A stretch of DNA of 64,000 nt. Origin: an uncultured Gammaproteobacteria bacterium (GTDB lineage: Bacteria; Patescibacteriota; Microgenomatia; Levybacterales; UBA12049). Below the pieces are notes generated by a model. It made no database searches and was not told the DNA's origin. It saw only the letters and a list, made by a program, of their open reading frames with translations. Location: the NCBI GenBank assembly GCA_965230895.1, contig OZ246394.1:1505887-1569886 (forward strand), written 5' to 3'. The position numbers and the translations under genes were made by a program. Shown one piece after another: positions 23,558 through 57,858 of the stretch. Numbering within the stretch: the stretch's first letter is position 1; each line of letters opens with the position of its first letter.

Positions 23558-25465
23558 ATGGTAAAGAAAAATCATCTGATATTTTTCATTCCAATAGTTT
23601 TAGTTTTATTATTGCTTACTATGGTGGTTACCAAAGTCTATGCAGCGAATACACAACTTTCAATTACAGTGCTTCTTCATGGAATAGGCAAAGGAGGGGA
23701 TAGTTCAAATCCAAATAGTGGAGGGAATACCACACCGAAGAATGCCACCAGAAATATCTCTGTTGGTGTATTTAACGCACAGAATGTTTTAGTATCAAGT
23801 CGGCTTGTCGTAGCAAATTATGATGCAGCAAGCGGAAGTTACAAAGCAACTGTTGATTTTGGGAATCTTTCGACGGGGCCATACAATGTTGCTATCCGTG
23901 CTGATAAATATCTTCAGAAAAATGCAACAGGCATTCAAAATATTACTGCGGGCCAAATAAATACAATTCCTCCCGTAAACCTCATTGCAGGAGATATTAT
24001 TATTGATAATGCTATCAATATCCAGGATTTCAACATGCTGATGAACTGCTACTCGGATTTGCGTCCAGCAAAGGCTTGTACGGCCGCTCAAAGCGCTCTA
24101 GCCGATCTTACAGATGATGGGAAGGTCAATCAACTTGATTACAATTTATTCATTCGTGAGATAGGGAATAGGAGCGGCGAATCGAATCCTACTACAAACC
24201 CTTCTCCTTCTGCTCCTCCGACTGCTTCAAGTGGAGATTTTCCACGGCTCGGAGGCATGCTTATTGGTTCACCACAAAATTATGATGAAGCAGCGTATCA
24301 GCAACAAATAGCAAAGCTTGATATGGCTGTTCTTGGCATGTATCCTGGATGGAATCGTGGAGGTAAAACAATGGCGAAAGCTGTTTCTGAAATTAAAGCA
24401 AAGAACGCCAGTATAAAACTTGCCAATTATACAATCATGACTGAAGTAAATAATACTTCTGATCCGGCAACAGCTGCTTGGCGTACTAAACTTTCTGCGG
24501 AGAAAGGGCCAAATGGGAAAGGGGATTGGTGGGCATACAATAGCTCAGGACAGCATACGGATTGGTCGGGAGGGAGTTACAGTGCATGGGATACAAATGT
24601 CACACTCCAGACAACGGTCGATACTAATGGAGACAAATGGCCGCAATGGAAAGCAAAACATGATTATCAAACGTTATATCAAGGCAATGGGTTTGATTTC
24701 TGGTACAGTGATAATAATTTCTGGAAGCCCCGAACAAATGCAGATTGGAATCGTGATGGCACAAATGACTCTGCAGACTCTGTGGCTGTTCGTAATTGGT
24801 GGAGGGACGGGCAAAAGGCCTATTATACTACTGCAAAATCGATTGCACCAAATACACCAGTGATGGTAAATACAGACAATGATCTTGATGGGACAGTTTT
24901 CCCATCAGATGCTGATGATTTTACGCAATACAAAAATCTTGTCGGTGCAGCTTTCATGGAGCATGCTATGGGTGTGGACTGGTCAACCGAAACATGGGGC
25001 GGTTGGGCAACGACCATGAATTGGTATAGAAAACTCAAATCAAATCTTACCGCACCACAATATGTGATGTTTGATGTATATGTGCCAAATACTTCTGATT
25101 ACCAATATTTGCGTTATGCTTTTGCAACATGTCTTATGGATGACGGCTATTTCTCCGCTTCAACAGATTACAATAAAATTGTCTGGTTTGATGAATTTGA
25201 CTTGGCAGGGACAAAGTCTACAAAATGGCTTGGAAAGGCTGTAGATGGTCCAAGAACCTCAGCATGGCAAAATGGTGTATACCGACGTAATTTCCAAAAT
25301 GGAATTGTTCTGGTAAATCCAAAAGGCAATGGAACCAAGACAGTAACTATTGAATCAGGTTATCGACGATTTCAGGGAAAACAAGCTCCAAGTGTCAACA
25401 ATGGGCAACCTGTAACAACAGTAACATTAAACGATAGGGACGGACTATTCTTAGTTAAGAATTAG
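23558..25465 (+). CDS. Secreted protein with a signal peptide, dockerin/EF-hand-like Ca-binding motif, Pro/Ser linker and a large C-terminal putative glycoside-hydrolase-like domain
   Basis: N-terminal signal (IFFIPIVLVLLLLTMVVTKVYA). DLTDDGKVNQLDYNLF resembles a dockerin-type calcium-binding repeat. NPTTNPSPSAPPTASS linker. Trp/Asp-rich C-terminal domain about 400 aa. Confidence 0.45.
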   Translation: MVKKNHLIFFIPIVLVLLLLTMVVTKVYAANTQLSITVLLHGIGKGGDSSNPNSGGNTTPKNATRNISVGVFNAQNVLVSSRLVVANYDAASGSYKATVDFGNLSTGPYNVAIRADKYLQKNATGIQNITAGQINTIPPVNLIAGDIIIDNAINIQDFNMLMNCYSDLRPAKACTAAQSALADLTDDGKVNQLDYNLFIREIGNRSGESNPTTNPSPSAPPTASSGDFPRLGGMLIGSPQNYDEAAYQQQIAKLDMAVLGMYPGWNRGGKTMAKAVSEIKAKNASIKLANYTIMTEVNNTSDPATAAWRTKLSAEKGPNGKGDWWAYNSSGQHTDWSGGSYSAWDTNVTLQTTVDTNGDKWPQWKAKHDYQTLYQGNGFDFWYSDNNFWKPRTNADWNRDGTNDSADSVAVRNWWRDGQKAYYTTAKSIAPNTPVMVNTDNDLDGTVFPSDADDFTQYKNLVGAAFMEHAMGVDWSTETWGGWATTMNWYRKLKSNLTAPQYVMFDVYVPNTSDYQYLRYAFATCLMDDGYFSASTDYNKIVWFDEFDLAGTKSTKWLGKAVDGPRTSAWQNGVYRRNFQNGIVLVNPKGNGTKTVTIESGYRRFQGKQAPSVNNGQPVTTVTLNDRDGLFLVKN

Positions 25466-25803: not shown

Positions 25804-27537
25804 TTAATTCGGCTTAATTTTGTATTCCACTACTGGTACCGCAGTACATTGTCCGCCCATGTCATTAATTGCTGGTATACATTTGCCTGATTTACATGTC
25901 TGTGGACGTGTTGTCTCGCATGGAGCCCCTTCCTCACCAGAAATTGGTGCTGGGTTATTTCCGCATACGCCTGATGATCTCTCCGCTGGTGAGCAATCAT
26001 TTGGATTTATTGGATTTGCCGGAGGTGCTTGGTAACGTGGTGGAACGATAACTGGGTTTGTCGGATTTGTTGGACGAAGACTACCAGGTGCACCTTTTTT
26101 GACACATTTACCATTTACTAAATCGCTATCTTGGGCGCAGCAAACTTTCGCTGTACTTTTAACCGGACAATTAGCTCTTGTAACTGGAACCTGGGTATAG
26201 TTATATCCACATGCAGGGGTGGTTGTGCAGCAGCCGTTTATGACCGGTTTGCCCACATCGCAGCAGACAGTTGGCGTGTTAACAGCTGCGCGCTTTGATG
26301 CGCAAGCAGGTTTGAGCACTGTTACAGGTTTTTGTGGACCTGGTTTCAATGTTGTTCCAGGTTTTACTATTGTTTTAGGTTTGATTGCTCCCGGCTTAAT
26401 GACCGATGGAACCTGGATTCTCGGCAAGACAGGAGCGGGTGGCGGAGGTGCTGGACTGCATGTTTCTCCTGTAATCCCGCCACCGCTTGAAATTGTTCCA
26501 GGTGGGCAAATGCTCGTAACTGTAGTATCATTTGTCTCTTGAGTTATGGCTATACCTGCAACGGCTTGGGGACTATTATCTATCTTTGTCCCTGCGTCCG
26601 CCAGATATACTGATTTTTCTGGGAATACTTGTTTGCCACTTGAATCAACCCATATCTTTATGACAGGGCAGATTTTTGATCCGATGGATCGCTTACAAAA
26701 GTCTTTGCAGGCATCACTATCAGGGTGGACTTTGCAAAGCTCTTCAAGGACATCTTGCTCTTTTTGATCAAGGACTATATTTTCATCGCACTGCTGATTT
26801 TCTCGCGGTTCTCCAAGTACCGGCCCAGAACATAGTCCGCCTTTGAAAAGCTCGCAATACTGACGACTGGTGCAGAGCGGATTCTTCGAGTCTTTACTAC
26901 AGATTGATTGGATATTACTTTTGTCTTTAGCGGTCAGTGGTTTCACCCGAAGTGCTGTGCAAGTAGAATTTATTCGGACATTTGTTGCTTCAGTAATCGG
27001 GAGGTGTTGACCATCAGTATCTGTGATACCTGCCCCCACCACCCATCCTTCGCTGGGGCTATCAGAAGTAAAGAGATATCTTGACTCTTTACTCGTCAGT
27101 GTTTCTCCGGGAGCAAGCATCTTCGTACCTTCTAAAGGCTCAAATTCTGCGATATAGAATTGCTTCAGTGATCCTGCAGCGATACCATAATTTGCTATGG
27201 TAATTGGTTGATCTCCAACATTTTTATAAGTAAATGAGCCTGAAAGCGTATCATTGTAGTACACATTTTGGCCGACAAACTTTTGTCCATTTACTTTTAA
27301 GAGGGTTCCGCCTTCTTGTCCCATACGAGTGCCACAAAGCGTAGGGTCTGCTTCTCCAGTATGAAGACAACCAAAGAGTGGAGGAGCATTAAAACCCTCG
27401 GCAAATTGCATGATGCGTTGTGGCTGAAGAAGTGCAAAGACAGTCAATGCTAGAATTGGCAGCATAATAAACATGAAGAATAGATTCTTTTTGTTATTTT
27501 GCTTTGTTTGAAGTCGTCTTTTTCTTAGTTTTGGCAT
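25804..27537 (-). CDS. Secreted Cys-rich / Pro-rich exoprotein (cassette copy 1)
   Basis: Basic N-terminus plus TM/signal (LFFMFIMLPILALTVFALLQPQ). The conserved ~300-aa N-domain is shared at about 85% identity with 28113..29957. C-terminal half rich in Cys, Pro and Thr. Confidence 0.6.
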   Translation of the reverse strand: MPKLRKRRLQTKQNNKKNLFFMFIMLPILALTVFALLQPQRIMQFAEGFNAPPLFGCLHTGEADPTLCGTRMGQEGGTLLKVNGQKFVGQNVYYNDTLSGSFTYKNVGDQPITIANYGIAAGSLKQFYIAEFEPLEGTKMLAPGETLTSKESRYLFTSDSPSEGWVVGAGITDTDGQHLPITEATNVRINSTCTALRVKPLTAKDKSNIQSICSKDSKNPLCTSRQYCELFKGGLCSGPVLGEPRENQQCDENIVLDQKEQDVLEELCKVHPDSDACKDFCKRSIGSKICPVIKIWVDSSGKQVFPEKSVYLADAGTKIDNSPQAVAGIAITQETNDTTVTSICPPGTISSGGGITGETCSPAPPPPAPVLPRIQVPSVIKPGAIKPKTIVKPGTTLKPGPQKPVTVLKPACASKRAAVNTPTVCCDVGKPVINGCCTTTPACGYNYTQVPVTRANCPVKSTAKVCCAQDSDLVNGKCVKKGAPGSLRPTNPTNPVIVPPRYQAPPANPINPNDCSPAERSSGVCGNNPAPISGEEGAPCETTRPQTCKSGKCIPAINDMGGQCTAVPVVEYKIKPN

Positions 27538-27540
27538 ATA

Positions 27541-28092
27541 TTAATACGTTCTTGGTGTCAAAAAATTGTTTATGGTGTGAATAACACCATTCTTGCTTTT
27601 AATATCATAATTCTCAAGGTACGAGTAATCATTAAGTATCCAATATTCTCCTTTTTTTGTAAATTTTATTTTTTCTCCTTGGACAGTTGTCAGTTCCATC
27701 CCATCTTTTAGATCTGCAAATAGATATTGTCCTTTGACGACATGATATAGCAATGTTTGCCTGAGATCGCCTTCTTGTTCTGGTAATTGTATTGATGCTA
27801 AAAATCCAGGAGAAAGTTTTGCATATGCTTCATCGGTTGGGACAAATACTGTATACGGTCCTTTATCATGGAGAAAAGTGTCATAGCCGACTGATGTTAT
27901 GAGCATTCCAAATTTGCTGGTTGTAGATGAATACTGGATATTGTCTGCTATATCCATTGAAGGTTTCATCTGGATCTCCTCATACTCAATAAAGTTTGGA
28001 TCGGAGGATATCCAGATAAACAGGCTTGGAATAAGTATCAACAAAATGATACCGAGAATATAGAGATATTTTTTACGCAGTTTGAGTGTCAT
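27541..28092 (-). CDS. Fasciclin (FAS1) domain protein, N-terminally anchored
   Basis: YTVFVPTDEAYAKL...LLYHVVKGQYLFADLKDGMELTTVQGEKIKF...NGVIHTINNFLTP matches the FAS1 consensus. Stop is 3 nt upstream of the Cys-rich gene start. Confidence 0.7.
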   Translation of the reverse strand: MTLKLRKKYLYILGIILLILIPSLFIWISSDPNFIEYEEIQMKPSMDIADNIQYSSTTSKFGMLITSVGYDTFLHDKGPYTVFVPTDEAYAKLSPGFLASIQLPEQEGDLRQTLLYHVVKGQYLFADLKDGMELTTVQGEKIKFTKKGEYWILNDYSYLENYDIKSKNGVIHTINNFLTPRTY

Positions 28093-28112
28093 AGCTTAAT
28101 ACATAAAACATA

Positions 28113-29957
28113 CTATCTACAAGCCATCTCTTTCTCGTCATATGTCGTCTGACAGCCTTTATCACGAATACATTGTTGGAATAAGTCTCCGCTTCTGCCA
28201 ACTCGACAGAAGTTATAGCAAGCTTGACTCTCTATAACGACAGGCTCCATACATGCGCCATAAGTTGCCTTATAACCCTTTTGCTTCGCTAAGCAATCAA
28301 AATCACTCTTCTTGGTTAAATCCCCAATGCTACATGTTGGATCTGCTGGAGCAGGGTTTGCCGGTGCTGGGTTTGCCGGAGCAGGATTATTGCCACATAC
28401 ACCTGCTGATCTTTCTGCTGGCGTACAGTCATTTGGATTTGGTGGTGTATCAGCTGGCGCTTTATAGTTTGGCGGATAAATCTTATTTGTGTCTCGAGGA
28501 ATCTGAGATTCTCCAGGCAATGGTTGTTTGCCTGCTGGAACCTGACTCGGTTGGCAATAACCGAACTTCTCTACAGTATCTTTTGCACAACAAACACCTG
28601 ATTTACTCTTGTATTGGCAGTTTGCTCTTGTTGCAGGCGCTGATTTATAGACAAAGCATCCTGGTTGGCAGCAACCATTAATAAGAGGGAAGTCACTTGC
28701 ACAGCATTGGCCACTTTCATTTGCTCTGTGAGATGGGCATGATGGCTTGTAACCGATTGAGCTTCTCGGATCAACTCCTGGCGCTGCTGGCTTTGGTGGG
28801 AATGGGTTTGTCTTTGGTTTTGCAGGTGATGGTGCTTTGCATAATCCACTCGGAGGATTGACGGAAAGATCGACATATCCACTACAACATCCCGCAGTAT
28901 TATCTCCACTTTGCCCATTTGGAATACATGCTTCGGCCTTCACGCCGGCATCGTTATCTGGTGCTCCGTTGGCGGCGGCAATAACCTTTGCGCCAGCAAC
29001 TGCGGGTTCATTGGTACTTGCCATATACTTTGCAGGCTGTGGGAAGACTTGTTTGCCATTTGGATCAAACCACAACATCTCAGCTGGACAGATTTTAGAA
29101 CCAATGGCACGTTTACAGAAATCTTTGCATGCATCACTGTCTGGGTATGGTTTACAAAGTTGCTCTAAAATATCCTGTTCTTTCTGATCCAAAACTATAT
29201 ATTCATCACATTGTTGATTTTCTCGTGCCTCACCAAGAACTGGACCTGAACATTGTCCGCCTTTAAATATTTCGCAGTACTGACGACTTGTACAAAGAAT
29301 GTTTTTCGGATCCTTACTGCAAAGTGCTTGGATGTTGCTCTTGTCTTTTACAGTAAGTGTCTTTACGCGAAGCGCTGTACAAGCAGAACTAACACGGACG
29401 TTTGTAGATTGCGTGATTGGAAGTGGTTGGCCATCAGTATTTGTAATGCCCGGACCGACAACCCATCCATCACTTGGATCACCAGATTTAAATGTATATG
29501 ATGATTCTTTACTTGTAAGTATCTCTCCAGGAGCGAGTGTCTTAGCTCCTTCTAAAGGCTGAAACTCTGCAATATAAAATTGCTTCAGCGATCCTGCGGC
29601 TATGCCATAATTTGCGATATTGATCGGTAGGTCACCAACGTTTTTATAGGTAAATGATCCGGAGAGCGTATCATTATAATAAATATTTTGTCCGACAAAT
29701 TTTTGTCCATTCACTTTTAATAAGCTTGCGCCTTCTTGTCCTAATCGTGTACCACACAGTGATGGGTCAGCTTCTCCTGTATGGAGACATCCAAAGAGTG
29801 GGGGAGCATTAAATCCTTCTGCAAATTGCATAACGCGCTGTGGTTGGAGTAGCGTAAAGATTGTTAGTGCCAAGATTGGTAACATAACAAAAAAGAAAAG
29901 CAAATTTCTTTTTTTATTCTTTGTTTGTCTTATGCTTCTTTTTCTTGTTTTTGCCAT
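28113..29957 (-). CDS. Secreted Cys-rich / Pro-rich exoprotein (cassette copy 2)
   Basis: Paralogue of 25804..27537. N-domain nearly collinear. C-terminus with PANPAPANPAPADP repeats and Cys clusters. Confidence 0.6.
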   Translation of the reverse strand: MAKTRKRSIRQTKNKKRNLLFFFVMLPILALTIFTLLQPQRVMQFAEGFNAPPLFGCLHTGEADPSLCGTRLGQEGASLLKVNGQKFVGQNIYYNDTLSGSFTYKNVGDLPINIANYGIAAGSLKQFYIAEFQPLEGAKTLAPGEILTSKESSYTFKSGDPSDGWVVGPGITNTDGQPLPITQSTNVRVSSACTALRVKTLTVKDKSNIQALCSKDPKNILCTSRQYCEIFKGGQCSGPVLGEARENQQCDEYIVLDQKEQDILEQLCKPYPDSDACKDFCKRAIGSKICPAEMLWFDPNGKQVFPQPAKYMASTNEPAVAGAKVIAAANGAPDNDAGVKAEACIPNGQSGDNTAGCCSGYVDLSVNPPSGLCKAPSPAKPKTNPFPPKPAAPGVDPRSSIGYKPSCPSHRANESGQCCASDFPLINGCCQPGCFVYKSAPATRANCQYKSKSGVCCAKDTVEKFGYCQPSQVPAGKQPLPGESQIPRDTNKIYPPNYKAPADTPPNPNDCTPAERSAGVCGNNPAPANPAPANPAPADPTCSIGDLTKKSDFDCLAKQKGYKATYGACMEPVVIESQACYNFCRVGRSGDLFQQCIRDKGCQTTYDEKEMACR

Positions 29958-29959
29958 AG

Positions 29960-30517
29960 CTATTGCAACATAGATGTTGGTATTAATGCATTTGTCATAA
30001 TATGGATCACGCCATTTTTCGTATCTATGTCGTATGTCTCAAAATATGAATAACCATTGATATTCCAATAGCCATTTGTTTTCTTAAAAACCAATTTATC
30101 ACCTTGGATAGTTGTCAGCTCCATGCCTTCTTTCAGGTCTGCAACATGATACTCTCCTTTAACAACATGAAAAAGTAAAAACTCTCGTAGAAGACCTTCT
30201 TGTCCAGGATCATGCAGTCTTCCAGTTAAATCTGTTGAGAGTTTACCGAATGCCTGATCTGATGGAACAAAGAGTGTGTATGGTCCATTCTGATGTAAAA
30301 ATGTATCAAAGTCTGCAAGTTGTACAAGTGTATTGAATTGGCGAGTCTTTTCGGAATAAGTTAAATTGTCTGCAATGTCTGATGATGGTCTCATTTGAAT
30401 ACCGTCATATTCAATGATTGGAGTATTTGTATAAATCCAGATAAGTGCAATTGGAATAATGATAGCTAATAGAATAGCTACAATATAAACCGGTTTCTTC
30501 TTTACCTTTACTGTCAT
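29960..30517 (-). CDS. Fasciclin (FAS1) domain protein
   Basis: YTLFVPSDQAFGKL...LLFHVVKGEYHVADLKEGMELTTIQGDKLVF...NGVIHIMTNALIP. Ends 2 nt before the next gene. Confidence 0.7.
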   Translation of the reverse strand: MTVKVKKKPVYIVAILLAIIIPIALIWIYTNTPIIEYDGIQMRPSSDIADNLTYSEKTRQFNTLVQLADFDTFLHQNGPYTLFVPSDQAFGKLSTDLTGRLHDPGQEGLLREFLLFHVVKGEYHVADLKEGMELTTIQGDKLVFKKTNGYWNINGYSYFETYDIDTKNGVIHIMTNALIPTSMLQ

Positions 30518-30571
30518 AACTTTATCTTATCTTAAGAAAAATAGAGAAGTCAACGCACGGTATATTCTCTA

Positions 30572-31144
30572 TCATCGATCCTGATTATAATTTGGTGGGA
30601 CAATCTTTGGTTGTTCTGATGAATTATGTATTTCTGGAGGTGCGGGGTTTCCTGGTGGCCTGCAAAAGCCTCCAACCATAAGGAATGCATCTTTTGCACA
30701 GCTTACCTTAAATACATTTTTAAAAGGTGAGTTCTCTCTCGTCAAAACTGGTCTTGGAGTAGGTGTTGGCATTACAATTGGACCTGAAGCGATAATACGT
30801 TTTGTACCTTTTTGAGGGAGGGAGGGTTTCTGAGCTTGTATCGGGTTAATTCTTGCTTGTGCAGGATCAGGAGGCAATGGTGCTCCTCCAGAACATTGTC
30901 CTGCTCGTCCAGCTCCATATGGTATGCAAAATCCTGCTCCTTCGCATTGGTTATTCCCAGCCATGTCACATCCTCGGACCATAAGTTGTGGACGTTGTAC
31001 CTCAGATACATTCGTCTCAGCAGCAAATTGTTTTATTATTTGAGGCTGAAGCATGGTAAAAATTGTTAATGCCAGGATAGGGAACATGATAAAAAAGAAA
31101 AGTAAATTTTCTTTTTGCTTCTTCATCTTTTTCTTTCGTACCAT
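30572..31144 (-). CDS. Truncated/degenerate Cys-rich exoprotein (cassette copy 3)
   Basis: Same basic N-terminus and signal (LLFFFIMFPILALTIFTMLQPQ) and the same C-terminal KIVPPNYN tail motif. It lacks the ~300-aa conserved N-domain. Confidence 0.5.
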   Translation of the reverse strand: MVRKKKMKKQKENLLFFFIMFPILALTIFTMLQPQIIKQFAAETNVSEVQRPQLMVRGCDMAGNNQCEGAGFCIPYGAGRAGQCSGGAPLPPDPAQARINPIQAQKPSLPQKGTKRIIASGPIVMPTPTPRPVLTRENSPFKNVFKVSCAKDAFLMVGGFCRPPGNPAPPEIHNSSEQPKIVPPNYNQDR

Positions 31145-31149
31145 ATTAT

Positions 31150-31752
31150 TTATTTTATTTTACTTGGTGGGATAGCAAAACTTGTTACAGTATGGATAAC
31201 ACCGTTTTTGCTTTCTATATTATAAACTTCTAAATAAGAATAGCCATTAATGACCCAAAAATCTTTTCCTTTATAAAATTTAAGTTTCTCTCCCTGAATA
31301 GTTGTCAGCTCCATTCCATTTTTCAAATCTTCCGCTAAGTACTTTCCTCGCACAACATGGTATCCCAACAATTGTCTCAGAGCATCTTTTTGTTTGGGAG
31401 ATTTCAGGGAATCTGTAAATTCATCTGAAAGATTGTTATATGCAGTATTTGTTGGCGCAAATACAGTAAACGGACCGGGTTCGTGAAGCATTGCACTTGC
31501 ACTAGCAGAATCTAAGAGCGAGGCGAATCTATTTGTCTCGGGAGAATATGAAAGGTTATCCATAATATCTTTTGAAGGCCTCATGTATACGCCATCATAT
31601 TCAATTGTGGAAGGATTGGCATAAATAGTGTATGCGCCAATAGGAATAAAGACTAAGAGGGCGAAAATTACTAAAATAAGTATTTTGACATAAAGTTTCA
31701 TAGGTTTCATCCATCGTAACGTACGTAAAATACTTCTGTCAAATAGATACAA
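31150..31752 (-). CDS. Fasciclin (FAS1) domain protein
   Basis: FTVFAPTNTAYNNL...LLGYHVVRGKYLAEDLKNGMELTTIQGEKLKF...NGVIHTVTSFAIP. Confidence 0.7.
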   Translation of the reverse strand: MYLFDRSILRTLRWMKPMKLYVKILILVIFALLVFIPIGAYTIYANPSTIEYDGVYMRPSKDIMDNLSYSPETNRFASLLDSASASAMLHEPGPFTVFAPTNTAYNNLSDEFTDSLKSPKQKDALRQLLGYHVVRGKYLAEDLKNGMELTTIQGEKLKFYKGKDFWVINGYSYLEVYNIESKNGVIHTVTSFAIPPSKIK

Positions 31753-31824: not shown

Positions 31825-32217
31825 TTATTTCAACTCAACAGTAGCTCCTGCTGCTGTAAGTTTTTCTTTTGCTTCATCAGCTGTTTTTTTGTTAACTTGG
31901 TTCAAAACTTCTTTTGGTGCCGCATCAACTAAGTCCTTCGCTTCTTTAAGACCCAATGCTGGGTTTATTTCTCGAAGTGCTTTAATAACAGCGATCTTTT
32001 GAGCGCCTGCGCTTGCAATGATAACGTCAAATGAAGTCTTTTCTTCTGCAGGTTCTCCAGCATCAGCTGATCCACCAGCTGCAGGTGCAGCGGCGACCAT
32101 AGTTGCGGCAGCAGAAACTCCGAACTTTTCTTCAAGAGCCTTTACTAAATCTGAAAGCTCGAGAACTGACATCTCTTCAATTGCTTGCATTAATTCGTCT
32201 TTACTTAATTTCGCCAT
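31825..32217 (-). CDS. rplL: 50S ribosomal protein L7/L12
   Basis: [34 protein letters not shown]...[11 protein letters not shown]...[10 protein letters not shown]...ATVELK. Confidence 0.9.
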
Positions 32218-32260
32218 CTATAATCACCTCCTTTTCGGTAGGGACTAGTACTTAGAAATC

Positions 32261-32809
32261 CTAAGCGCTAGCTCCTTTCTTGTCTTTAATTGCATTAAGT
32301 GTCATAACAAAATTTTGGATATTCCAACTGAGTGCTCGGTGTAAACCTTGGATAGGTGATTGCATCTGGCCAAGAAGCTTTGCTCGAAGTACTGGCAATG
32401 GTGGGAGAGTTGCGATCTTAATAACTTCTTTGTCTGTTACGATATTGCCTTCGATAAGACCAAATTTAACTTCTGGAAGTTTAAAATCTTTAATAGTCTT
32501 TGAAAGAAGCTTCAATGGTTCAACAACGTCACCATAGATGAAAAGTGCTGCTGTTGGTTTGGTGAATTTATCTTTTTCAGCTTCTGTATCTATCTTATCT
32601 GTAAGTGCTCGGAGCAAAAGTGTATTCTTTGCAGCTACGAATTCTGCATCAACTTTTTTTAAGCCTTTTTTCAAGCCTTCAAGTTGCTGGTGAGTAAGTC
32701 CTTGGTAATTCGCAAAAACGATACCGTTCGCTCGTCCTACCTTTTCAATGAGTTCAGCTGTGATAGCTTCTTTTTTTAATCTGTTTTGTGATGTATTTAC
32801 GTCTGCCAT
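32261..32809 (-). CDS. rplJ: 50S ribosomal protein L10
   Basis: MADVNTSQNRLKKEAITAELIEKV...FVAAKNTLLLRAL. The start is placed at the internal ATG (32809) rather than the ORF-track start 32833. Confidence 0.85.
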   Translation of the reverse strand: MADVNTSQNRLKKEAITAELIEKVGRANGIVFANYQGLTHQQLEGLKKGLKKVDAEFVAAKNTLLLRALTDKIDTEAEKDKFTKPTAALFIYGDVVEPLKLLSKTIKDFKLPEVKFGLIEGNIVTDKEVIKIATLPPLPVLRAKLLGQMQSPIQGLHRALSWNIQNFVMTLNAIKDKKGASA

Positions 32810-32958
32810 AGTAATAATAAAAAAGACACTCACGAGGAGTGCCGAAAATACGAAGTATCTAATTTGGCTCCTCGGTTGGACTTATCTTTGTGCCAACTGT
32901 CTTTGGAATATCTAGCATTATAGCAATCTTGATGGGGAATGTAAAGTGTCGTTCAGAC

Positions 32959-35151
32959 TTATGGAGCTGTTACTCGTAATCCATCGAGGTATACAATACT
33001 TGTTGAACTGTCTGGACCTCTATAAAGTCCTGATTTCATATAGTTACTACTGCTGGACATTGTTGCTCTATTTGTCTTTGGTACTGTTTGTACGCCATTT
33101 TCCCATCCCTCGACAAATCCAGTGCTCGCATTGCTCGAAAACTTTGCATGAAGTACATAATTTGTCCAAACACCTTTGCGGACAGGTCCAAGGCTAAGGT
33201 TCGGGTGTGTGACACCATCTCCTCCAATATCAACGGTTCCGCTTGAGCTTACGTTAATTGCCAATGGGGGAGAACCGCTACCTGAATGAAACTGTAAAAC
33301 AATAAACCACCCTCCAGTAGGATTGGTAAATGAGTTATCAAATTTTACAGAAAATTCGTACCATCGCTCATCTCCCTCAACTACGTCTGCTGTCTCTGGT
33401 GCCGTAACCTCAGCTCGTTCTCCACCAAAATCCGGTTCATCACCAGGTCTGACTTCATATCGTGCAGCTGTTTCGTGGCCGGCTCCATCGTTTACAATCT
33501 TCGCCATATAATCCGCACCGCTATAGCTACTGCAACCGCTATTCATGCCTTTCCATTGACATGTGCTCCATTGACTAAAATTACCTGTGTCATAGTTGCC
33601 TACAAAGACCTCCTTTGTCCCTACAGGAACTTGTCCGACACTAGTTGAGGGTGATGGAGAAATTAATGGTGTTGTCCCAAATATTGTTGGAGTGAGATTA
33701 CTCGGAGCCTGTGAAGTCGTTGGTTGCGCTCCACCAGATGGTTCAGTCGACGGTTGTGGCTCAGTTGATGGTTCAGGGCAAGGGTTGTTCGGATCGGTTG
33801 GCAATGGTACATTTCCACCTCTTAGGATATATTCAATAAGCCAGATAAGGAATCGCATAAATCGTTCGATGAAGCCACCTCCACGATTTCTCTTGTACTT
33901 CTTTTTACCTTTTTTATTTGTTTGGACGGATGAAGAGCTGTCTGAGGCACATGGTGCAACAGTGGAAGGATAAGGATTACTTGCTCCGCCAGAAGGATTA
34001 ACACCACCAGTAACGCCAGGAGTTCCAGCTCCAGGGTTACCGCCGCCAGCACCTGGAGTTGTAGTTGTCCCAATCGGAGCACAAGGAGGTTCACCGACGC
34101 CACCGACACAATAAATTGTTGGTGTTATTAATGATGGGGTATTTGATGGTTGTGTCCCAGTTGTTGGTTGCGTTCCACCTGCAACTGGAGTGTAACTATT
34201 CCATTCTTTCAATACACGTAACTTTTCCCATGGAATACCATTCATTTGATAGTAGTCACTCGTGAATCCTACACTTGGGTATGGATCATTCTTATCCATA
34301 GGGTGCTCGAATTGGAATGCCATTCCTGCACCTCCACAGTCAATAACATAAGCTCCATACTTTTGCAGCGCCTTTGCAACGGTTTTTTCGCCCGCAGACA
34401 TGGAAAGAGAATCAACATTTACAGATGGATCAAGCTGGACACGTGCACCTTCAGGAATTGCTCCGGCTCCACTGTACTTTCCATCGGTCTTTACAGCAGG
34501 GAAGCGAATTTCGTTCACGGCGCAATAACTGGACGAGAATACCAGAGCATGTTCAATATTTCCTTGTTCCATCTCATATGTTCTGACAATTCCAGCTAAA
34601 CGCGAAGTGCCTGCGCCAATTGCAGAATTTTCGGGAGAACCACGTCCATCACCATCAAGTGGCAAAATTCCACCCCAGTTGGTCGTGGCTTTATCATCTT
34701 TATAAATCCAGAATTCATAACTCTTGCGGGCAGAGAGATCAACAATTACCATTTGGCCATCTGAACCTGGTGCTTGCCGAGCATCATCCGGAATTGGTAC
34801 TGGCTCAGTTGAAATTCCACAAGTACCCCAACTTTCTGTACATTTAATATTATGCTTTGGCGTTGATGCATCGGCGAAATAAATCGGAGTACCAAATTCG
34901 TATAAATCAGCGACTTTATCTCCACCAGCTAATGTTTTGACCATTTCAGCACTTTTTGGATCGAGTTGGACGTTGGTCCCAATTGGTTGATTCCATGCAC
35001 TGTCGTCAGCAAATGGGCGACCAGCATTTGTAGTCATATTTGTAGAAGCTTTGCTTCTATTGTCTTGCTGTTGGAGGACGGAGAATATCGTGAGAGGAAT
35101 TGCCAGCGCAACAAGGAGTGTCGGTATCAAAACATTAGGCTTTTTTCCCAT
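32959..35151 (-). CDS. Secreted multi-domain protein with a C-terminal concanavalin-like / polysaccharide-lyase-like domain and a shared internal K-rich/amphipathic module
   Basis: N-terminal anchor LLVALAIPLTIFSVLQQQDNRSKA. C-terminal about 250 aa (WYEFSVKFD...IVLQFHSGSG...LYRG...VYLDG) resembles the Polysacc_lyase / ConA-like fold. The internal segment PSLITPTIYCVGG...KKYKRNRGGGFIERFMRFLIWLIEYILRGG... is shared with the next gene. Confidence 0.55.
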   Translation of the reverse strand: MGKKPNVLIPTLLVALAIPLTIFSVLQQQDNRSKASTNMTTNAGRPFADDSAWNQPIGTNVQLDPKSAEMVKTLAGGDKVADLYEFGTPIYFADASTPKHNIKCTESWGTCGISTEPVPIPDDARQAPGSDGQMVIVDLSARKSYEFWIYKDDKATTNWGGILPLDGDGRGSPENSAIGAGTSRLAGIVRTYEMEQGNIEHALVFSSSYCAVNEIRFPAVKTDGKYSGAGAIPEGARVQLDPSVNVDSLSMSAGEKTVAKALQKYGAYVIDCGGAGMAFQFEHPMDKNDPYPSVGFTSDYYQMNGIPWEKLRVLKEWNSYTPVAGGTQPTTGTQPSNTPSLITPTIYCVGGVGEPPCAPIGTTTTPGAGGGNPGAGTPGVTGGVNPSGGASNPYPSTVAPCASDSSSSVQTNKKGKKKYKRNRGGGFIERFMRFLIWLIEYILRGGNVPLPTDPNNPCPEPSTEPQPSTEPSGGAQPTTSQAPSNLTPTIFGTTPLISPSPSTSVGQVPVGTKEVFVGNYDTGNFSQWSTCQWKGMNSGCSSYSGADYMAKIVNDGAGHETAARYEVRPGDEPDFGGERAEVTAPETADVVEGDERWYEFSVKFDNSFTNPTGGWFIVLQFHSGSGSPPLAINVSSSGTVDIGGDGVTHPNLSLGPVRKGVWTNYVLHAKFSSNASTGFVEGWENGVQTVPKTNRATMSSSSNYMKSGLYRGPDSSTSIVYLDGLRVTAP
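33700..34145. repeat. About 440-nt intragenic segment that is about 85-90% identical to 35740..36150 in the neighbouring gene
   Basis: Direct nucleotide comparison. For example, atttccacctcttaggatatattcaataagccagataaggaatcgcataaatcg matches atttccacctcttagaatatattcaataagccagataaggaaccgcataaatcg. Confidence 0.7.
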
Positions 35152-35217
35152 AGGTCAAGTATATCTAGTTTATAAAAAAAGGAATGGATAATACAAGTAC
35201 AAGTTATAAAGTAACCG

Positions 35218-37398
35218 TTATGTTTTCGGAGTCATGCATGTTCCAGTTGTTTGGTCCCAAATCGGTTTTGGATCCACAGGAAGGTCTGCTGGTGGATCGA
35301 CAATGATTTGTATATCTCCCGATGTTGTCAATGATTCTTCACACTGAATAACAGATTCACTATCTGAAGGGTTTCCTACATAAAGATCAACCATTGTGAC
35401 TGCACCACAACCATTTGGTGCGGTCCATGAAACTGCACATTCATCCTCTTTGATGAAATACTTTTGTACACGTGGTACATAAATTTTTTGTCCATAGCTA
35501 TACGCTCCAGTACCGGCAGGGGATGCAAATGTTAATGGGTCAGCATATGTGCCTGTTCCACCAGCTTCTTGATGAATGACTGGATTTGAAATATCTTTGG
35601 AACCCTTTGGATCATTATCATAAGATCCATAAAATGTAACTTTGACATTAGCTTGTGTACCGCCGCTCGCAGCAGGTGATACCGATGGTGTGGTGCCGGA
35701 TGGATCAACAGATGGTTGTGTACTAATTGTCGGTTGTGTCTCTATTGATGGCTCAACTGAAGGTTGAGGGTCAGTTGATGGCTCAGGGCATGGGTTATTT
35801 GGATCAGTTGGGATAGGGACATTTCCACCTCTTAGAATATATTCAATAAGCCAGATAAGGAACCGCATAAATCGCTCTATGAAACCACCTCCACGATTTC
35901 TCTTGTACTTCTTCTTGTGCTTCTTATTATGCATGACACTACTGGTGCTTTCCTGGCAAGGTGCAACATTTGAAGGATAAGGAGTACTTGCACCACCAGA
36001 TGGATTCACTCCACCAGTGACACCTGGAGTTCCAGCGCCTGGAGATCCACCACCTGCACCTGGAGTTGTTGTTGTATCAATTGGAGCACAAGGAGGTTGT
36101 CCTGCTCCACCTACGCAGTAAATGGTTGGGGTAATAAGTGATGGAGCCGAGGACACTCCTGGACTTGCTCCTCCAGTTGCACCAAATTCATACGCACCAA
36201 TATCAATGCCGCTTCCCGCAGGTCGGGCTTTATTCTCTTTATCAAACGCTGGTGCTCCTGCCGCTGTTCCTTTATCAATTGCTGCTGAACCAGCAGTCAG
36301 GTGATAATCTCCATTTCCAACAAATCCTGGATTACTCGTAATATTGTTACTCATTTGAAGGCCTGAGCTATTAGCGCTTCCAATGATGATGTTATTAAAT
36401 ACAGGATTGCTGCCACTTGGAGTTTCAATCACTTTAATCGCTTGTTGCTCATCAATTGTATTGTTGTAAACACGAATATCAGATAATGTTCCTCCGGGTT
36501 CGACCCAAAAGGTGATACCCCCGCCGGCATTGCCATAAATTACATTATTGAAGATATCGATGTTACCAGCTTTTCTTGGATTTTCTGCACCATCATATGA
36601 AGTCTCAGCAGCAATCATAATACCCGCTTTACTGCCTTCAGTTGTTCCATAAGAAATGTTATTGTAGATCTTCACACCACTTGAACCGTCAACATAAATG
36701 TTTGGTCCACGGTTTCCGAATACTACATTGTCATGAATACTTCCATTAACGTCGCCTGCACCATTGTATTTCGCATCAATACCTTCTTCACCATTGCCAT
36801 GGACTTGGCAGTTCTTGATTTCGAAACCTGTTGATCCACCAGTAATACTGAGAGCCTCTCCACCTGCACTTGTTCCCATGGCGTTGGTGCCATGAATATT
36901 ACAACCGTCTACAACAACATTCTTACTTTGCCAGATAATCAAACCGCCTTGCTGGGAACCATCAATTTCAAAGTCTTTTAAGAGCAAACCATCTGCATTA
37001 TTTACGTTTGCACCATAATCACCTGAATCCTTTACCGTAAATCCAATCAGTTTAACGTTTTTACCGCTGATCTTCATCGTGCCATTGGTGATAACTCTTC
37101 CACCGGTTGCCTGGATTGTGACATCACTTGCTGATATGTTAAGTGCTTCATTATATGTGCCAGCTGCCACGTTTACAGTCCCACCTGAACCTGCTGATTG
37201 GATTGCAGAATTGATTGATCCACCTGGTTGTACCTCAACTGCAACTCGTGCTGGAGCTGCTTTGCTACGATTATCCTGTTGTTGTCGCGCAGCAATGATT
37301 GTGATGGGAAGTACGAATAGTGCTAATAGAACAGCAAAAAGAATTTTACGATTTTTCATCCTTACCTTTATGTTATCTACAAAACTCTTGTAATACAA
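35218..37398 (-). CDS. Secreted right-handed beta-helix (pectate-lyase-like, PbH1 repeats) protein with the shared internal module and a distinct C-terminal domain
   Basis: N-terminal anchor LLALFVLPITIIAARQQQDNRSKA. Repeated NNxIxGN / GxxIxxNNT beta-helix rungs (HDNVVFGNRGPNIYV, NNVIYGNAGGGITFW, FNNIIIGSANSSG). Internal KKYKRNRGGGFIERFMRFLIWLIEYILRGG module. C-terminal about 180-aa domain (KVTFYGSYDNDPKG...GTGTYADPLTFAS) that may be a DPBB/3D-like fold. Confidence 0.6.
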   Translation of the reverse strand: MYYKSFVDNIKVRMKNRKILFAVLLALFVLPITIIAARQQQDNRSKAAPARVAVEVQPGGSINSAIQSAGSGGTVNVAAGTYNEALNISASDVTIQATGGRVITNGTMKISGKNVKLIGFTVKDSGDYGANVNNADGLLLKDFEIDGSQQGGLIIWQSKNVVVDGCNIHGTNAMGTSAGGEALSITGGSTGFEIKNCQVHGNGEEGIDAKYNGAGDVNGSIHDNVVFGNRGPNIYVDGSSGVKIYNNISYGTTEGSKAGIMIAAETSYDGAENPRKAGNIDIFNNVIYGNAGGGITFWVEPGGTLSDIRVYNNTIDEQQAIKVIETPSGSNPVFNNIIIGSANSSGLQMSNNITSNPGFVGNGDYHLTAGSAAIDKGTAAGAPAFDKENKARPAGSGIDIGAYEFGATGGASPGVSSAPSLITPTIYCVGGAGQPPCAPIDTTTTPGAGGGSPGAGTPGVTGGVNPSGGASTPYPSNVAPCQESTSSVMHNKKHKKKYKRNRGGGFIERFMRFLIWLIEYILRGGNVPIPTDPNNPCPEPSTDPQPSVEPSIETQPTISTQPSVDPSGTTPSVSPAASGGTQANVKVTFYGSYDNDPKGSKDISNPVIHQEAGGTGTYADPLTFASPAGTGAYSYGQKIYVPRVQKYFIKEDECAVSWTAPNGCGAVTMVDLYVGNPSDSESVIQCEESLTTSGDIQIIVDPPADLPVDPKPIWDQTTGTCMTPKT
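35740..36150. repeat. Second copy of the ~440-nt shared intragenic segment (see 33700..34145)
   Basis: Same as above. Encodes PSLITPTIYCVGG...GGGFIERFMRFLIWLIEYILRGGNVP..PTDPNNPCPEPST. Confidence 0.7.
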
Positions 37399-37424
37399 GT
37401 ATTTATTTTAGGTTGTGAAAATTA

Positions 37425-37955
37425 TTAGCTTTGATAGCCTAACTTATTAAGCATTCTAGTGGTGGAATTATGGTGGAATTCATAATTTACAGGAATTATT
37501 CCTGACCCTGCAGCACGTGCCTGTTTAATTTTTAATTCAAGATGAGGATCGAATACAGGTACGGCTACTTGTGCAGGACCAAAAGCTTTATATCTTTCAG
37601 TGAAAGCGCTTGAGTCATCATAAGATGGAGCTCCAGGTAGTATAAAAACCAGTTTCACTACTTCAAGTTCGGAGGCAAACTCAGCACGTTCATCTTCGTT
37701 GTTAATTGGACGATCTGGTTTATTGAGTGCAACCGATGCGTCATTTTCTAATCCAAGAGCGAGAATTCCAGGAGTCGCTTGATCTGCTGCATGAAGATAT
37801 CGTGTGTGTCCAACATGTGGTATGTCCAGAACACCCAAGGCAACTTTTGTTCTTATTCCAGCACTGCGTGCTTGACGGAAAAGTACCGCAGCTTCATCGA
37901 AAGAAATGATTTTATCTTGTGGAGGCAGGTGACCAATATGATCAATCTCTACCAT
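37425..37955 (-). CDS. Cytidylyl-/adenylyl-transferase-like nucleotidyltransferase (HxGH family)
   Basis: GVLDIPHVGHTRYL is an HxGH nucleotidyltransferase motif, as in TagD/RfaE-II/NMNAT. About 175 aa. Confidence 0.5.
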   Translation of the reverse strand: MVEIDHIGHLPPQDKIISFDEAAVLFRQARSAGIRTKVALGVLDIPHVGHTRYLHAADQATPGILALGLENDASVALNKPDRPINNEDERAEFASELEVVKLVFILPGAPSYDDSSAFTERYKAFGPAQVAVPVFDPHLELKIKQARAAGSGIIPVNYEFHHNSTTRMLNKLGYQS

Positions 37956-37961
37956 AAAAGA

Positions 37962-38801
37962 TTAAAGAGAAGCAGTTTCGAGCTTCAAACCAGGGGAAAT
38001 GGTTGATTTTAATGTAACGTTCTTAATGTTTTTAACCTTAACTGCACTGATAGCTGTTTTGATGTTGTCAGCCAATTTCTTATCTCCAAATGAAACTTTA
38101 CCAACAGCCATGTGAAGAATAGGGAACTTAGCTTCTGTTTTGAAATTGATTTGACCGCCAGCAAATTTCTTTGCAGCTTCTTCTGGCTTCGGAGTTACTG
38201 TACCATTCTTTGGATTTGGCATAAGTCCTCGAGGTCCAAGAACACGTGCAACTCGAGCTAGCTTAGGCATAGCATCAGGTGTTGCGATCAAGACATCGAA
38301 ATCAACTTTTCCTGCTTCAATTGCTTTGATAAGTTCATCTACAGCTTTTGGATCTTCAGAAGCATTTGCGATTGCAACACGTGTTTCTTTACCAGTTCCG
38401 TGTGGCAAAACAACATTTCCTGAGATTCCTTTGTCGGTAGTATTGATATGGAGTTCAACTGTCTCATCAAACTTTGCTCGCTGGAGTTTTGGTAAAATTT
38501 CCAAAGCATCATGTAAAGAATACTTCTTATTTTTGTCAACTTCTGAAGAAACTTTTGAATAACTCTTTGAGTGTTTATCTTTTTTCTCAATAGCTTGTTT
38601 GATGTAATCTTTGCCTTTTACAGGTTTTGATTCTTCAACTTCTGTGTCAGATGCTGCTTCATTTGAATCTTCAGCAAGTTCTTTTACACCAGCCTTTGCC
38701 TTTGCTTCTTCAATTGCTTTTAATCGAGCTTTTTCTTTCGCTTGTGCTTTTTGTTCTGATTGGTCTTCTTCGCCAACTGTTTTTACTCTGATTTTTCCCA
38801 T
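37962..38801 (-). CDS. rplA: 50S ribosomal protein L1 with an ~85-aa Lys/Glu-rich N-terminal extension
   Basis: Core from KKYSLHDALEILPKLQRAKFDETVELHINT...GKVDFDV...GPRGLMPNPKNGTV to the end is canonical L1. The N-terminal MGKIRVKTVGEEDQSEQKAQAKEKARLKAIEEAKAKAG... is extra. Confidence 0.85.
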   Translation of the reverse strand: MGKIRVKTVGEEDQSEQKAQAKEKARLKAIEEAKAKAGVKELAEDSNEAASDTEVEESKPVKGKDYIKQAIEKKDKHSKSYSKVSSEVDKNKKYSLHDALEILPKLQRAKFDETVELHINTTDKGISGNVVLPHGTGKETRVAIANASEDPKAVDELIKAIEAGKVDFDVLIATPDAMPKLARVARVLGPRGLMPNPKNGTVTPKPEEAAKKFAGGQINFKTEAKFPILHMAVGKVSFGDKKLADNIKTAISAVKVKNIKNVTLKSTISPGLKLETASL

Positions 38802-44500: not shown

Positions 44501-44779
44501 TTACGAAAGATCTTTGTGTGTCTGATATAAGTATGCAGCATCAGGATGATACTTCTTCAAACTCTTTGTTGTTGTTTTTTGTAATGCGTCGGACGTAATT
44601 TCCTTATCATTTTTAAGTTCGTTTTTCACTTCTTCTGTCACCATGTGCGAAATAGTTTCAGCTTCTTCATCAGACATACGTAAACTCATCAGTGCTAGAT
44701 ACACGCTGCCGTAGAGCTTTCTCTCATCAAATTCTTCAGAATGTCCTTTTCTTTTAACAATGTGATTCATATTAACCAA
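44501..44779 (-). CDS. Small stand-alone ATP-cone-like protein
   Basis: IVKRKGHSEEFDERKLYGSVYLA resembles the ATP-cone N-terminal motif (v.KRdG..E.Fd..KI). Confidence 0.4.
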   Translation of the reverse strand: MVNMNHIVKRKGHSEEFDERKLYGSVYLALMSLRMSDEEAETISHMVTEEVKNELKNDKEITSDALQKTTTKSLKKYHPDAAYLYQTHKDLS

Positions 44780-45476
44780 AGTTGATTGTACCGTTTGCGA
44801 TCAAGATCAATAACCAACCAAGACCAATGAGCATGAAACCAATTGCGAATCGCATATAACCTTTGTTTGCTTGCTTCCATTTCTTGATCTTACTAACCTT
44901 TGTGCCACCTGCAACCAAGAGCAATATTACGATCAAAGGTAGGACGAAGATAAAGTTGTAAAGCACGAGTAGTCCAAATGCATAGATGTCAAAGTTCAAT
45001 GAAAGAAGCGTAATGATTGCAAGATATGGTGCTCCAGTGCATGGTAATTCAACAGCTGAGATGAATGCCCCGAGGAGAATCACTCCAGGTACAGTTACAT
45101 TTTGTGAATATTTATGGATCATTGCTGCAAATACTGGAGGAATTTGCAAAGAAAAACCTTTACCGTACCAATAGTAGTCTTTAATTTCTAAGATACCAGC
45201 CATAATAACAAAGCTTCCGACGATGAGCGCTAGATATTCCGCTACGAATAATGGGACTGCTGAAAGGAAGTAAATCAGTCCAAGCCCAGCAACGAGGTAT
45301 GTGATAAAGATTGCACCGATATACAAACTCCCAAGCAAAAGTAATCGCTTAATTGATCCTTTCCCACTTAAAATAACTGAAACCATGAGAATCAATACGC
45401 CAATCGCGCATGGGTTAATTGAATCGACAGCTGCTGATAAAACAACGACTGATAATGTAGGGACGTCAATGACCAT
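44772..45476 (-). CDS. DsbD/CcdA-like thiol-disulfide transporter membrane protein
   Basis: Six TM helices with Cys in TM1 (DSINPCAIGVL) and TM4 (VELPCTGAPYL), as in the DsbD_2/CcdA family. Confidence 0.55.
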   Translation of the reverse strand: MVIDVPTLSVVVLSAAVDSINPCAIGVLILMVSVILSGKGSIKRLLLLGSLYIGAIFITYLVAGLGLIYFLSAVPLFVAEYLALIVGSFVIMAGILEIKDYYWYGKGFSLQIPPVFAAMIHKYSQNVTVPGVILLGAFISAVELPCTGAPYLAIITLLSLNFDIYAFGLLVLYNFIFVLPLIVILLLVAGGTKVSKIKKWKQANKGYMRFAIGFMLIGLGWLLILIANGTINFG

Positions 45477-57327: not shown

Positions 57328-57858
57328 CTAACGATACGGAAGGAGGACTCTATTAATGCCGTGTATAACACCATTTTGGGATTTTACATCTGGGTTTACT
57401 ATTTGTGCATCATTAACATACCATTTGTTATTTCGCTTCGTGATTTTAACTTGCTCAGAATTCACAGTCGTTAATATCATTCCGTCATTAAAGCTTGAGG
57501 TTGGATAATTTCCAAGTACCATGTGATTATTTGCCGTATGTACTTGCATAACATTATCTGTTTTATCGTTAAGGAGTTTCAAAACTTCAGGAGAGAGACT
57601 TTTATATGCTTCTTCTGTTGGCGCAAAAAGAGTAATCTGTGTCTCACTTTGCAATGCATTTTCCATTTTTGCGTCTTTAAGAATTCTCATAGAGGTTTCC
57701 TGATCTTTATCCGAAGAAAGATTTTGCAGCACGGTAGATTCATCAGTCTTTACACCAAACAACGGCTCACCACGCAAAAGAATACTTGCAATTCCGATTA
57801 CGAAAAGTCCTAATACAATCAATGGTAAAAATTTACTATTCATATATAAAGTATACAA
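57328..57858 (-). CDS. Fasciclin (FAS1) domain protein (fourth copy, downstream of the subtilisin)
   Basis: ITLFAPTEEAYKSL...MILTTVNSEQVKITK...NGVIHGINRVLLP. Confidence 0.7.
   Translation of the reverse strand: MYTLYMNSKFLPLIVLGLFVIGIASILLRGEPLFGVKTDESTVLQNLSSDKDQETSMRILKDAKMENALQSETQITLFAPTEEAYKSLSPEVLKLLNDKTDNVMQVHTANNHMVLGNYPTSSFNDGMILTTVNSEQVKITKRNNKWYVNDAQIVNPDVKSQNGVIHGINRVLLPYR

Follow-up and report, generated by a model that had tools for sequence, protein, structure and literature searches.

The 64,000-nucleotide (nt) stretch of contig OZ246394.1 considered here (the window, numbered from its first letter) encodes three unrelated exported proteins, a polysaccharide lyase (PL), a beta-helix protein (BH) and an S8 subtilase, which share a module of ~125–150 amino acids (aa) with conserved cysteines, a basic patch and one amphipathic helix. 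As far as sampled, this module appears to be an undescribed, lineage-restricted, non-catalytic accessory family of exoproteins in Levybacteria-like bacteria of the candidate phyla radiation (CPR). Its sequence suggests, at a probability of roughly 40%, an interfacial in-plane anchor to the membrane or envelope, borne on long Pro/Thr stalks.

A first-pass annotation had recognised a common module in these three open reading frames (ORFs), and both the ORFs and the places of the module were borne out by ORF checking, blastp and hidden Markov model (HMM) comparison (Table 1). BH matches the subtilase in blastp with an E-value of 2e-8 and PL matches it with 8e-7, while PL and BH are 74.7% identical over 186 aa; these alignments indicate that the three-way similarity is not due to chance. 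The subtilase copy is divergent, with ~30% identity to the PL and BH copies. The helix FIERFMRFLIWLIEYILRGG is identical in PL and BH and reads FLDRFFEFIFRLIELIFRII in the subtilase, and six-frame regular-expression and HMM scans find exactly three helix copies in the window. The basic stretch, helix and Pro-rich segment that the annotation described are all present, but the module is larger than these, beginning ~85 aa (PL and BH) to ~105 aa (subtilase) upstream of the helix and including four cysteines. In PL, the PF14099 lyase domain lies C-terminal to the module, and the N-terminal domain of ~300 aa has no Pfam match.

The alignment of the three window copies shows four conserved cysteines and a module start of the form TPT[IY][YV]C-x8-C. 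Family-wide, the landmarks run in the order of a motif A, a Pro/Thr spacer, PC, a K/R/H-rich patch, G-G-F, an 18-residue amphipathic helix, Gly or IGxQ, a Pro-rich return and the fourth cysteine (C4). Motif A reads [VI]TPT[ILV]YC[LV]G..C across the family, with the first two cysteines (C1 and C2) 4–9 aa apart; a Pro/Thr-rich stretch of 35–65 aa separates C2 from C3, which lies within an invariant PC followed by xx[ED][ST]..S[VI][QHM]. The K/R/H-rich segment between C3 and the helix spans 19–34 aa and has a mean net charge of +3.6 (range 0 to +7), and C4 is found 25–67 aa past the helix start in most copies and up to 97 aa past it in some second copies. Some second copies keep C3 and C4 only, which suggests that the cysteines probably pair as C1-C2 and C3-C4, and disulfides are plausible because the window encodes a DsbD/CcdA-like membrane protein (44772-45476; a weak, sub-cutoff NCBIfam match). 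A lipobox in C-L-G-S-C was rejected, as the common long variant C-V-G-G-V-G-A-P-P-C has no lipobox and internal copies do not lie beside a signal-peptide h-region. When the module was modelled as a monomer by AlphaFold2 from a 27-sequence alignment, the helix alone was predicted (residues 88-104, with a predicted local confidence, pLDDT, of ~85) and the remainder scored 50-65; in this model the module is disordered apart from one helix.

The motif [ST]PT[ILV][FY] recurs in the Pro/Thr linkers, with 32 occurrences observed against 1.6 expected in shuffles. It takes two forms, motif A, in which a Cys comes next, and a Cys-less copy that often lies ~25–30 aa past C4, for example at 33691-33705 of the window (the aa 483-487 region of PL, NLTPTIFGTTP) and at aa 483 of the subtilase. 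The motif may be a strand-pairing or modification site.

An exhaustive HMMER search of 1.84 billion representative proteins with a profile of the three module cores returned 31 clusters at E<1e-3, within which a local HMM delimits 39 module copies, six proteins having two. Identity across the 39 copies is 25–50%, and the amphipathic pattern and the four cysteines are kept; the family alignment holds 38 copies. The module matches no linker or coiled-coil family in Pfam (nothing relevant at E≤10), NCBIfam (E≤1) or the PDB (38-copy profile, E≤1), which agrees with its first description as uncharacterised, and full-text literature searches found no description of it. Its expected occurrence in exoproteins was likewise upheld, since every complete carrier examined has an N-terminal signal sequence (P0007 is apparently truncated at its N-terminus), and in 13 carriers an AxA|Q cleavage site lies 2–6 aa ahead of motif A. 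The module mostly stands right behind the signal peptide, at times between domains as in the window, and C-terminally in P0010, P0019, P0006 and P0038, the last of which stops 2 aa past C4; the internal position that the annotation had treated as a defining trait is therefore not upheld as such. Because most copies are terminal rather than internal, a role as an interdomain processing site is argued against, and a fixed site of this kind is unlikely. A choice-of-anchor Q domain precedes the module in BH and in P0019, where the module is C-terminal, and the linker from the helix to a downstream catalytic domain has a median length of 82 aa (range 53–129) and is rich in P, T, S and G. As a separate observation, the sequence QQQDxR[SQ][KR]A stands past the hydrophobic core of the signal peptide in 11 carriers, in the window only in PL (35044-35151, aa 1-36) and BH (37255-37359), and elsewhere in P0003, P0006, P0011, P0017, P0019, P0025, P0031 and P0038. 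It goes with an internal or C-terminal module, carriers of an N-terminal module having a plain AxA|Q site, and may be a lineage-specific cleavage or sorting motif.

The cargo comprises at least 15 types of catalytic domain, and a recognised hydrolase, lyase or phosphoesterase domain is present in most carriers. By Pfam domain, the carriers include glycosidases (GH5, GH10, GH12, GH16, a GH catalytic core and an apiosidase-like domain), lyases (Alginate_lyase2, PF14099 and pectate-lyase-like beta-helices), peptidases (S8, M28, M10-like, A4, and BSP with a ricin lectin domain), metallophosphoesterases, a phosphoesterase-GH16 fusion and a GSDH-type dehydrogenase, and several have no recognised catalytic domain. 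P0021 and P0031 are non-catalytic carriers with two copies. A fourth carrier, P0005 (GH12), is encoded on the same NCBI contig as BH.

None of the carriers in the 31 clusters could be placed outside the Levybacteria/Microgenomates group. The named genome matches are a Candidatus Levyibacteriota metagenome-assembled genome (MAG; L114), and a MAG labelled Gammaproteobacteria (L040, CAZDOJ010000002.1), which shares synteny and close kinship with the window, their L1 proteins being ~80% identical. The 'uncultured Gammaproteobacteria' label of L040 looks wrong, a Levybacteria-like CPR genome being almost certain. The L1 and L10 proteins of the window are 70–85% identical to those of L114. The PL N-domain has many Actinobacteria among its 120 best homologues, of which one contains the module (1/120), so that the module tracks the lineage and not the cargo. 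A degenerate DNA pattern run on genome contigs gave true copies in 2 of 118 stretches among the matches listed (L040 and L114). On metagenome contigs, a narrower alignment gave 137 pattern matches, all unconfirmed, a stricter pattern gave four false positives in high-GC contigs, and viral contigs gave 0 module copies; T-rich hydrophobic coding sequence makes NTN-type patterns unspecific, and the taxonomic range is under-sampled. A word-indexed protein search with the 75-aa core and the 38-copy alignment returned no match, its index apparently missing low-complexity sequences and close relatives.

The helix is the most regular part of the module. Positions 1, 2, 5, 6, 8, 9, 10, 12, 13, 16 and 17 are hydrophobic in 92–100% of copies and position 15 in 79%, and the polar positions 3, 4, 7, 11, 14 and 18 all fall inside a 100-degree arc, which leaves a hydrophobic face of ~260 degrees. 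The hydrophobic moment averages 0.62, with its peak at exactly 100 degrees, and lies 3.2 standard deviations above residue shuffles (p<0.01 in 34 of 36 copies), the mean hydrophobicity is 0.40, and E3/R7 and E14/R18 form i/i+4 pairs. The high moment at 100 degrees and the continuous hydrophobic face are the sequence-level features of an extracytoplasmic in-plane amphipathic helix, and on the Eisenberg hydrophobicity/moment plot such a helix would fall among the 'surface-seeking' ones. The polar stripe consists of E, R and K, or entirely of Gln in distant members, which indicates that amphipathicity is conserved and not residue identity or charge; physicochemistry kept without identity fits lipid binding and not specific docking. 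A transmembrane or stop-transfer anchor was rejected in view of the six polar positions (E/R/K/Q), the basic patch N-terminal to the helix and the exoenzyme domains on both flanks.

The divergence of the two neighbouring carriers indicates an old duplication. Over 128 aligned codons the PL and BH modules have a synonymous divergence (dS) of 1.02 and a nonsynonymous divergence (dN) of 0.10, and this dN/dS of 0.10 points to strong purifying selection on the module, its Gly/Pro/Thr-rich part included. The shared DNA, first reported as about 440 nt at 85–90% identity, amounts to 403 nt at 79.4% (33737-34137 and 35747-36144), in two blocks, one of 182 nt at 85% and the other of 188 nt at 80%. Nevertheless, PL and BH as paralogues are 96% identical in their helix codons, versus 76% for BH and its L040 orthologue, and the basic-patch codons are 84% identical between paralogues versus 62% between orthologues. 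The basic patch is also genome-specific, with KKKYKRNRGGG in both PL and BH and KKKHKKHKHGRGGG in three copies of the other genome. These comparisons indicate patchy intragenomic gene conversion that is limited to the basic-plus-helix core. Cargo has in addition been swapped round a constant module, for example in L040, where a beta-helix, the module and GH16 are joined in one protein and a signal peptide, the module and a BH-type C-domain in another, and in L114, where the PL N-domain and the module are joined to BSP/ricin. The cassette exchange proposed by the annotation thus holds for the homogenised core and for the shuffling of domains round the module, but not for the module as a whole, since a dS of ~1 excludes recent wholesale transfer. 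An in-frame insertion of mobile DNA (an RPE-like element) was rejected as well, as no inverted repeats flank the module and dS is ~1.0 versus a dN of 0.10.

Several known systems resemble the module in part. Escherichia coli PBP5 and PBP6 are exported enzymes that a C-terminal in-plane amphipathic helix tethers to the outer face of the cytoplasmic membrane, and the model proposed here for the module similarly relies on a single in-plane amphipathic helix and not on a transmembrane segment or a lipid. However, the PBP5/PBP6 helices are strictly C-terminal, lack Pro/Thr stalks, a cysteine bracket and a polybasic patch and have no sequence kinship with the module. MinD/FtsA-type membrane-targeting sequences, which act at the cytoplasmic face, are ~10–15 aa long and C-terminal and bind anionic lipid, also place a basic cluster before a short amphipathic helix (G-F-[IL]-x-R-[LF]-F style), a likeness that is compositional only. 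Dockerins are likewise small non-catalytic elements common to unrelated secreted enzymes, joined by Pro/Thr linkers and found at either end or internally, but they are Ca-binding duplicated EF-hand-like folds that bind cohesins, whereas the module has one predicted helix; Dockerin type I (PF00404) was excluded, as the Pfam scan returned nothing relevant. As an observation apart from the module, a 635-aa secreted protein of the window (23558-25465) has a Pfam Dockerin_1 match at aa 145-202 (E 3e-5), so a classical dockerin-like element is also present in this genome.

Sorting signals and leader peptides offer further likenesses. LPXTG/sortase and PEP-CTERM/exosortase signals likewise consist of a motif, a hydrophobic helix and a basic cluster, and two carriers have the module behind a choice-of-anchor domain; in the module, however, the basic cluster comes ahead of the helix, the reverse of their order, an amphipathic helix stands in place of a transmembrane one, the position is often non-terminal and there is no LPXTG or PEP motif or model match. 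An LPXTG sorting signal was rejected because the helix has 5-6 polar residues and because, as the annotation had noted, no such tail is present on window ORFs of at least 100 aa. The loose resemblance to KxYKxGKxW that it had also reported, which rests on K-K-Y-K-R in PL and BH, does not extend to the family; this signal (TIGR03715) was dismissed, as the stretch lies outside the signal peptide at aa 413-426 (PL) and 491-505 (BH), Y, G and W are unconserved in the 38 copies and NCBIfam gives no match at E≤1. A class III type IV prepilin leader (basic leader-G|F-T-L-I-E) has in common with the module a basic stretch that ends in Gly and, after it, Phe and a helix with Glu near its start (G-G-F-I-E). 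It was excluded, since the element is internal, past a Sec signal peptide and ~70 exported residues, with Glu at +3 and not +5 and an amphipathic helix (5-6 polar residues); with the module behind the Sec signal peptide, the topology is incompatible with a prepilin peptidase on the cytoplasmic face.

In the proposed mechanism, Sec export and signal-peptide cleavage would leave the helix lying flat in the outer-leaflet interface of the cytoplasmic membrane, which it cannot span because exported domains flank both sides. The adjoining cationic patch would bind anionic lipid head groups or wall polyanions, the probable C3-C4 and C1-C2 disulfides would present the helix on a loop, and Pro/Thr stalks of 50–130 aa would let the catalytic domains extend through the wall, so that the module would hold otherwise anchorless enzymes at the surface of a very small cell. 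A helix with a 260-degree hydrophobic surface on long flexible stalks is predicted to be incompatible with solvent, and no other anchor was seen for the carriers, given the AxA|Q sites in 13 of them and the window ORFs without LPXTG tails. The association of the helix with membrane or wall and its use in oligomerisation, both of which the annotation had raised, accordingly stay the best candidates. Several points weigh against the anchor. The net positive charge before the helix is missing in 5 of 38 copies, the net charge of the helix itself is ~0, and the hydrophobic heptad positions a, b, e and f are also typical of helices in higher-order bundles. Motif A, the recurrent TPT[IL]F motif and the four cysteines are left unexplained by the model, and the reading of 'choice-of-anchor' as an anchor slot is an assumption from the NCBIfam naming convention.

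The wide hydrophobic face might instead serve assembly, with helices bundling, forming a barrel or docking on a receptor to give multi-enzyme complexes, in the manner of a scaffold-free analogue of dockerin and cohesin. This is somewhat unlikely, although the module spreads over unrelated GHs, lyases and proteases as dockerins do, in N-terminal, internal or C-terminal position and in one or two copies, 4-5 of every 7 helix positions are hydrophobic, the adjacent paralogues PL and BH retain identical helices and the two-copy non-catalytic carriers P0021 and P0031 could serve as connectors. Cationic patches clustered beside a parallel bundle would repel each other, the polar stripe is free to vary (E/R/K/Q), helices differ within one genome (PL/BH, the subtilase and P0005), the helix is only ~2.5 heptads long and no candidate receptor was found. 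The possibility that the module is a signal for a dedicated machine (sortase-like, a protease, or a glycosyl- or acyl-transferase) for sorting, cleavage or covalent attachment, such as cleavage at the polybasic site or modification of motif A or of the PC cysteine, draws on the strong conservation of short motifs (invariant PC, TPTxYC, G-G-F), the enrichment of [ST]PT[ILV][FY], the sorting-signal ingredients in reversed order and the S8 protease and sortase encoded in the window. It is nonetheless improbable, as the position varies, no conserved cleavage motif is seen in the basic stretch, which some copies lack, the helix is too polar for a transmembrane segment and the topology bars cytoplasmic-side access. 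Moreover, no sorting-signal model matches, and no conserved neighbouring enzyme that might act as the partner of a targeting system was found in the loci examined.

Equally doubtful is the targeting of foreign surfaces, in which the cationic patch and a 'lytic-type' helix would bind or perturb the membrane of a host or prey, or bind a hydrophobic or anionic substrate surface, much as some phage endolysins do with their cationic amphipathic tails. A life attached to host cells is known from many CPR bacteria, the narrow polar angle, wide aromatic face and cationic flank resemble membrane-active peptides, and the window encodes a 2709-aa M23-peptidase/LamG surface protein; the cargo, however, consists mainly of degraders of plant and algal polysaccharides (GH5, 10, 12, 16, and pectate and alginate lyases) and not of attackers of walls or membranes, no copies were found in viral contigs and the helix itself is not cationic. 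A passive linker that binds nothing itself, kept as a lineage-specific spacer because its shared DNA favours recombination and the shuffling of domains, would account for the mostly disordered Pro/Thr-rich sequence, the shuffled domains and the patchy gene conversion. It is highly improbable in view of a dN/dS of 0.10 at a dS of ~1, the amphipathic pattern and four cysteines kept over 39 copies at 25–50% identity, and the presence of the module at termini, where a linker is superfluous. A broader proposal, in which the module would serve for recognition in a system of envelope display or self-assembly peculiar to Microgenomates-group CPR, working through scaffold-free cellulosome-like helix bundles or through handling of TPTxYC/PC/G-G-F by a dedicated sorting enzyme, is unlikely.

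The surroundings of the carriers show a recurrent arrangement. Exoenzyme genes, most of them with the module, lie between rplA (L1) and rplJ (L10) of the nusG-rplK-rplA / rplJ-rplL cluster in six independent contigs, namely the window, L040, L114, L125/L126, L130 (where there are four of them) and L131; each contig has between one and four such genes, and the cargo differs every time. The rplA-rplJ interval, part of a ribosomal-protein region of high expression, is a conserved hot spot. The start of BH is ambiguous between TTG 37398 (the mechanical ORF of 726 aa, database entry P0032) and ATG 37359 (713 aa, entry P0001), and the latter start (MKNRKILF...) gives the more typical signal peptide. 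The C-terminal domain of BH (35218-35660, aa ~580-726; TFYGSYDNDPKGSK...IHQEAGGTGT...) has no Pfam match and elsewhere forms the entire cargo of a 363-aa L040 protein, the N-terminal part of P0002 and the C-terminal part of P0030. A repeated pairing of genes is seen in the regions 25804-31752 and 57328-57858. The genes of three secreted proteins rich in Cys (30 in 577 aa, 36 in 614 aa and 6 in 190 aa) are each followed by one for a membrane-anchored fasciclin-domain protein; a fasciclin gene also follows the subtilase gene, and the Cys-rich C-terminus of the subtilase contains a duplicated CVVYPYGGTSCPAGQSCSLNPTTNKR unit. The 2709-aa surface protein (2274-10403) has Peptidase_M23, four DUF2341 and four LamG-like domains, and is preceded by a 671-aa Gly/Thr-rich ORF (216-2231) without a family match.

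Table 1. Positions in the window of the three module carriers, their landmarks and selected other genes.
Feature	Positions	Strand	Details
PL gene	32959-35151	minus	730 aa; signal peptide with QQQDNRSKA, unannotated N-domain aa 36-336, module aa 340-468, PF14099 Polysacc_lyase aa 521-726
PL module	33748-34134	minus
PL motif A	34081-34125	minus	TPTIYCVGGVGEPPC
PL Cys3	33949-33951	minus
PL basic patch	33874-33915	minus	KKGKKKYKRNRGGG, aa 413-426
PL helix	33814-33873	minus
PL Cys4	33778-33780	minus
BH gene	35218-37398	minus	726 aa from TTG start; signal peptide, beta-helix aa 89-247 (Beta_helix/NosD together aa 89-323), NCBIfam choice-of-anchor Q aa 365-405, module aa 420-547, unannotated C-terminal domain
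BH module	35758-36141	minus
BH motif A	36088-36132	minus
BH Cys3	35956-35958	minus
BH basic patch	35884-35928	minus	aa 491-505
BH helix	35824-35883	minus
BH Cys4	35788-35790	minus
S8 subtilase gene	57864-60827	minus	987 aa; N-terminal hydrophobic signal/anchor segment, fervidolysin-like prodomain, Peptidase_S8 aa 185-430, module aa 459-605, Gly/Pro-rich and Cys-rich C-terminal repeats
S8 module	59013-59453	minus
S8 motif A	59400-59444	minus	TPTYVCGGSGTGNVC
S8 Cys3	59226-59228	minus
S8 weakly basic stretch	59127-59225	minus
S8 helix	59067-59126	minus
S8 Cys4	59049-59051	minus
rplA-rplJ exoenzyme island	31825-38801	minus
rplL	31825-32217	minus
rplJ	32261-32833	minus
rplA	37962-38801	minus
Small nucleotidyltransferase-like ORF	37425-37955		with PL and BH between rplA and rplJ
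Sortase	11547-12311

CPR bacteria are abundant and uncultured, and to our knowledge almost nothing is known of how they hold surface proteins. The module marks the degradative exoproteome of one lineage, and its signature can be used to find surface enzymes in metagenomes. The constant module and swapped cargo between two ribosomal-protein operons illustrate clearly how domains are shuffled at a hot spot of fixed genomic position, and if the display or self-assembly reading were true, the rplA-rplJ island would be a highly expressed cargo locus. Should the module be an anchor or an assembly device, the basic patch and helix (~35 aa, as in the peptide KKGKKKYKRNRGGGFIERFMRFLIWLIEYILRGG) would offer a compact display tag for protein engineering, and the module would explain how very small cells keep the products of hydrolysis near.

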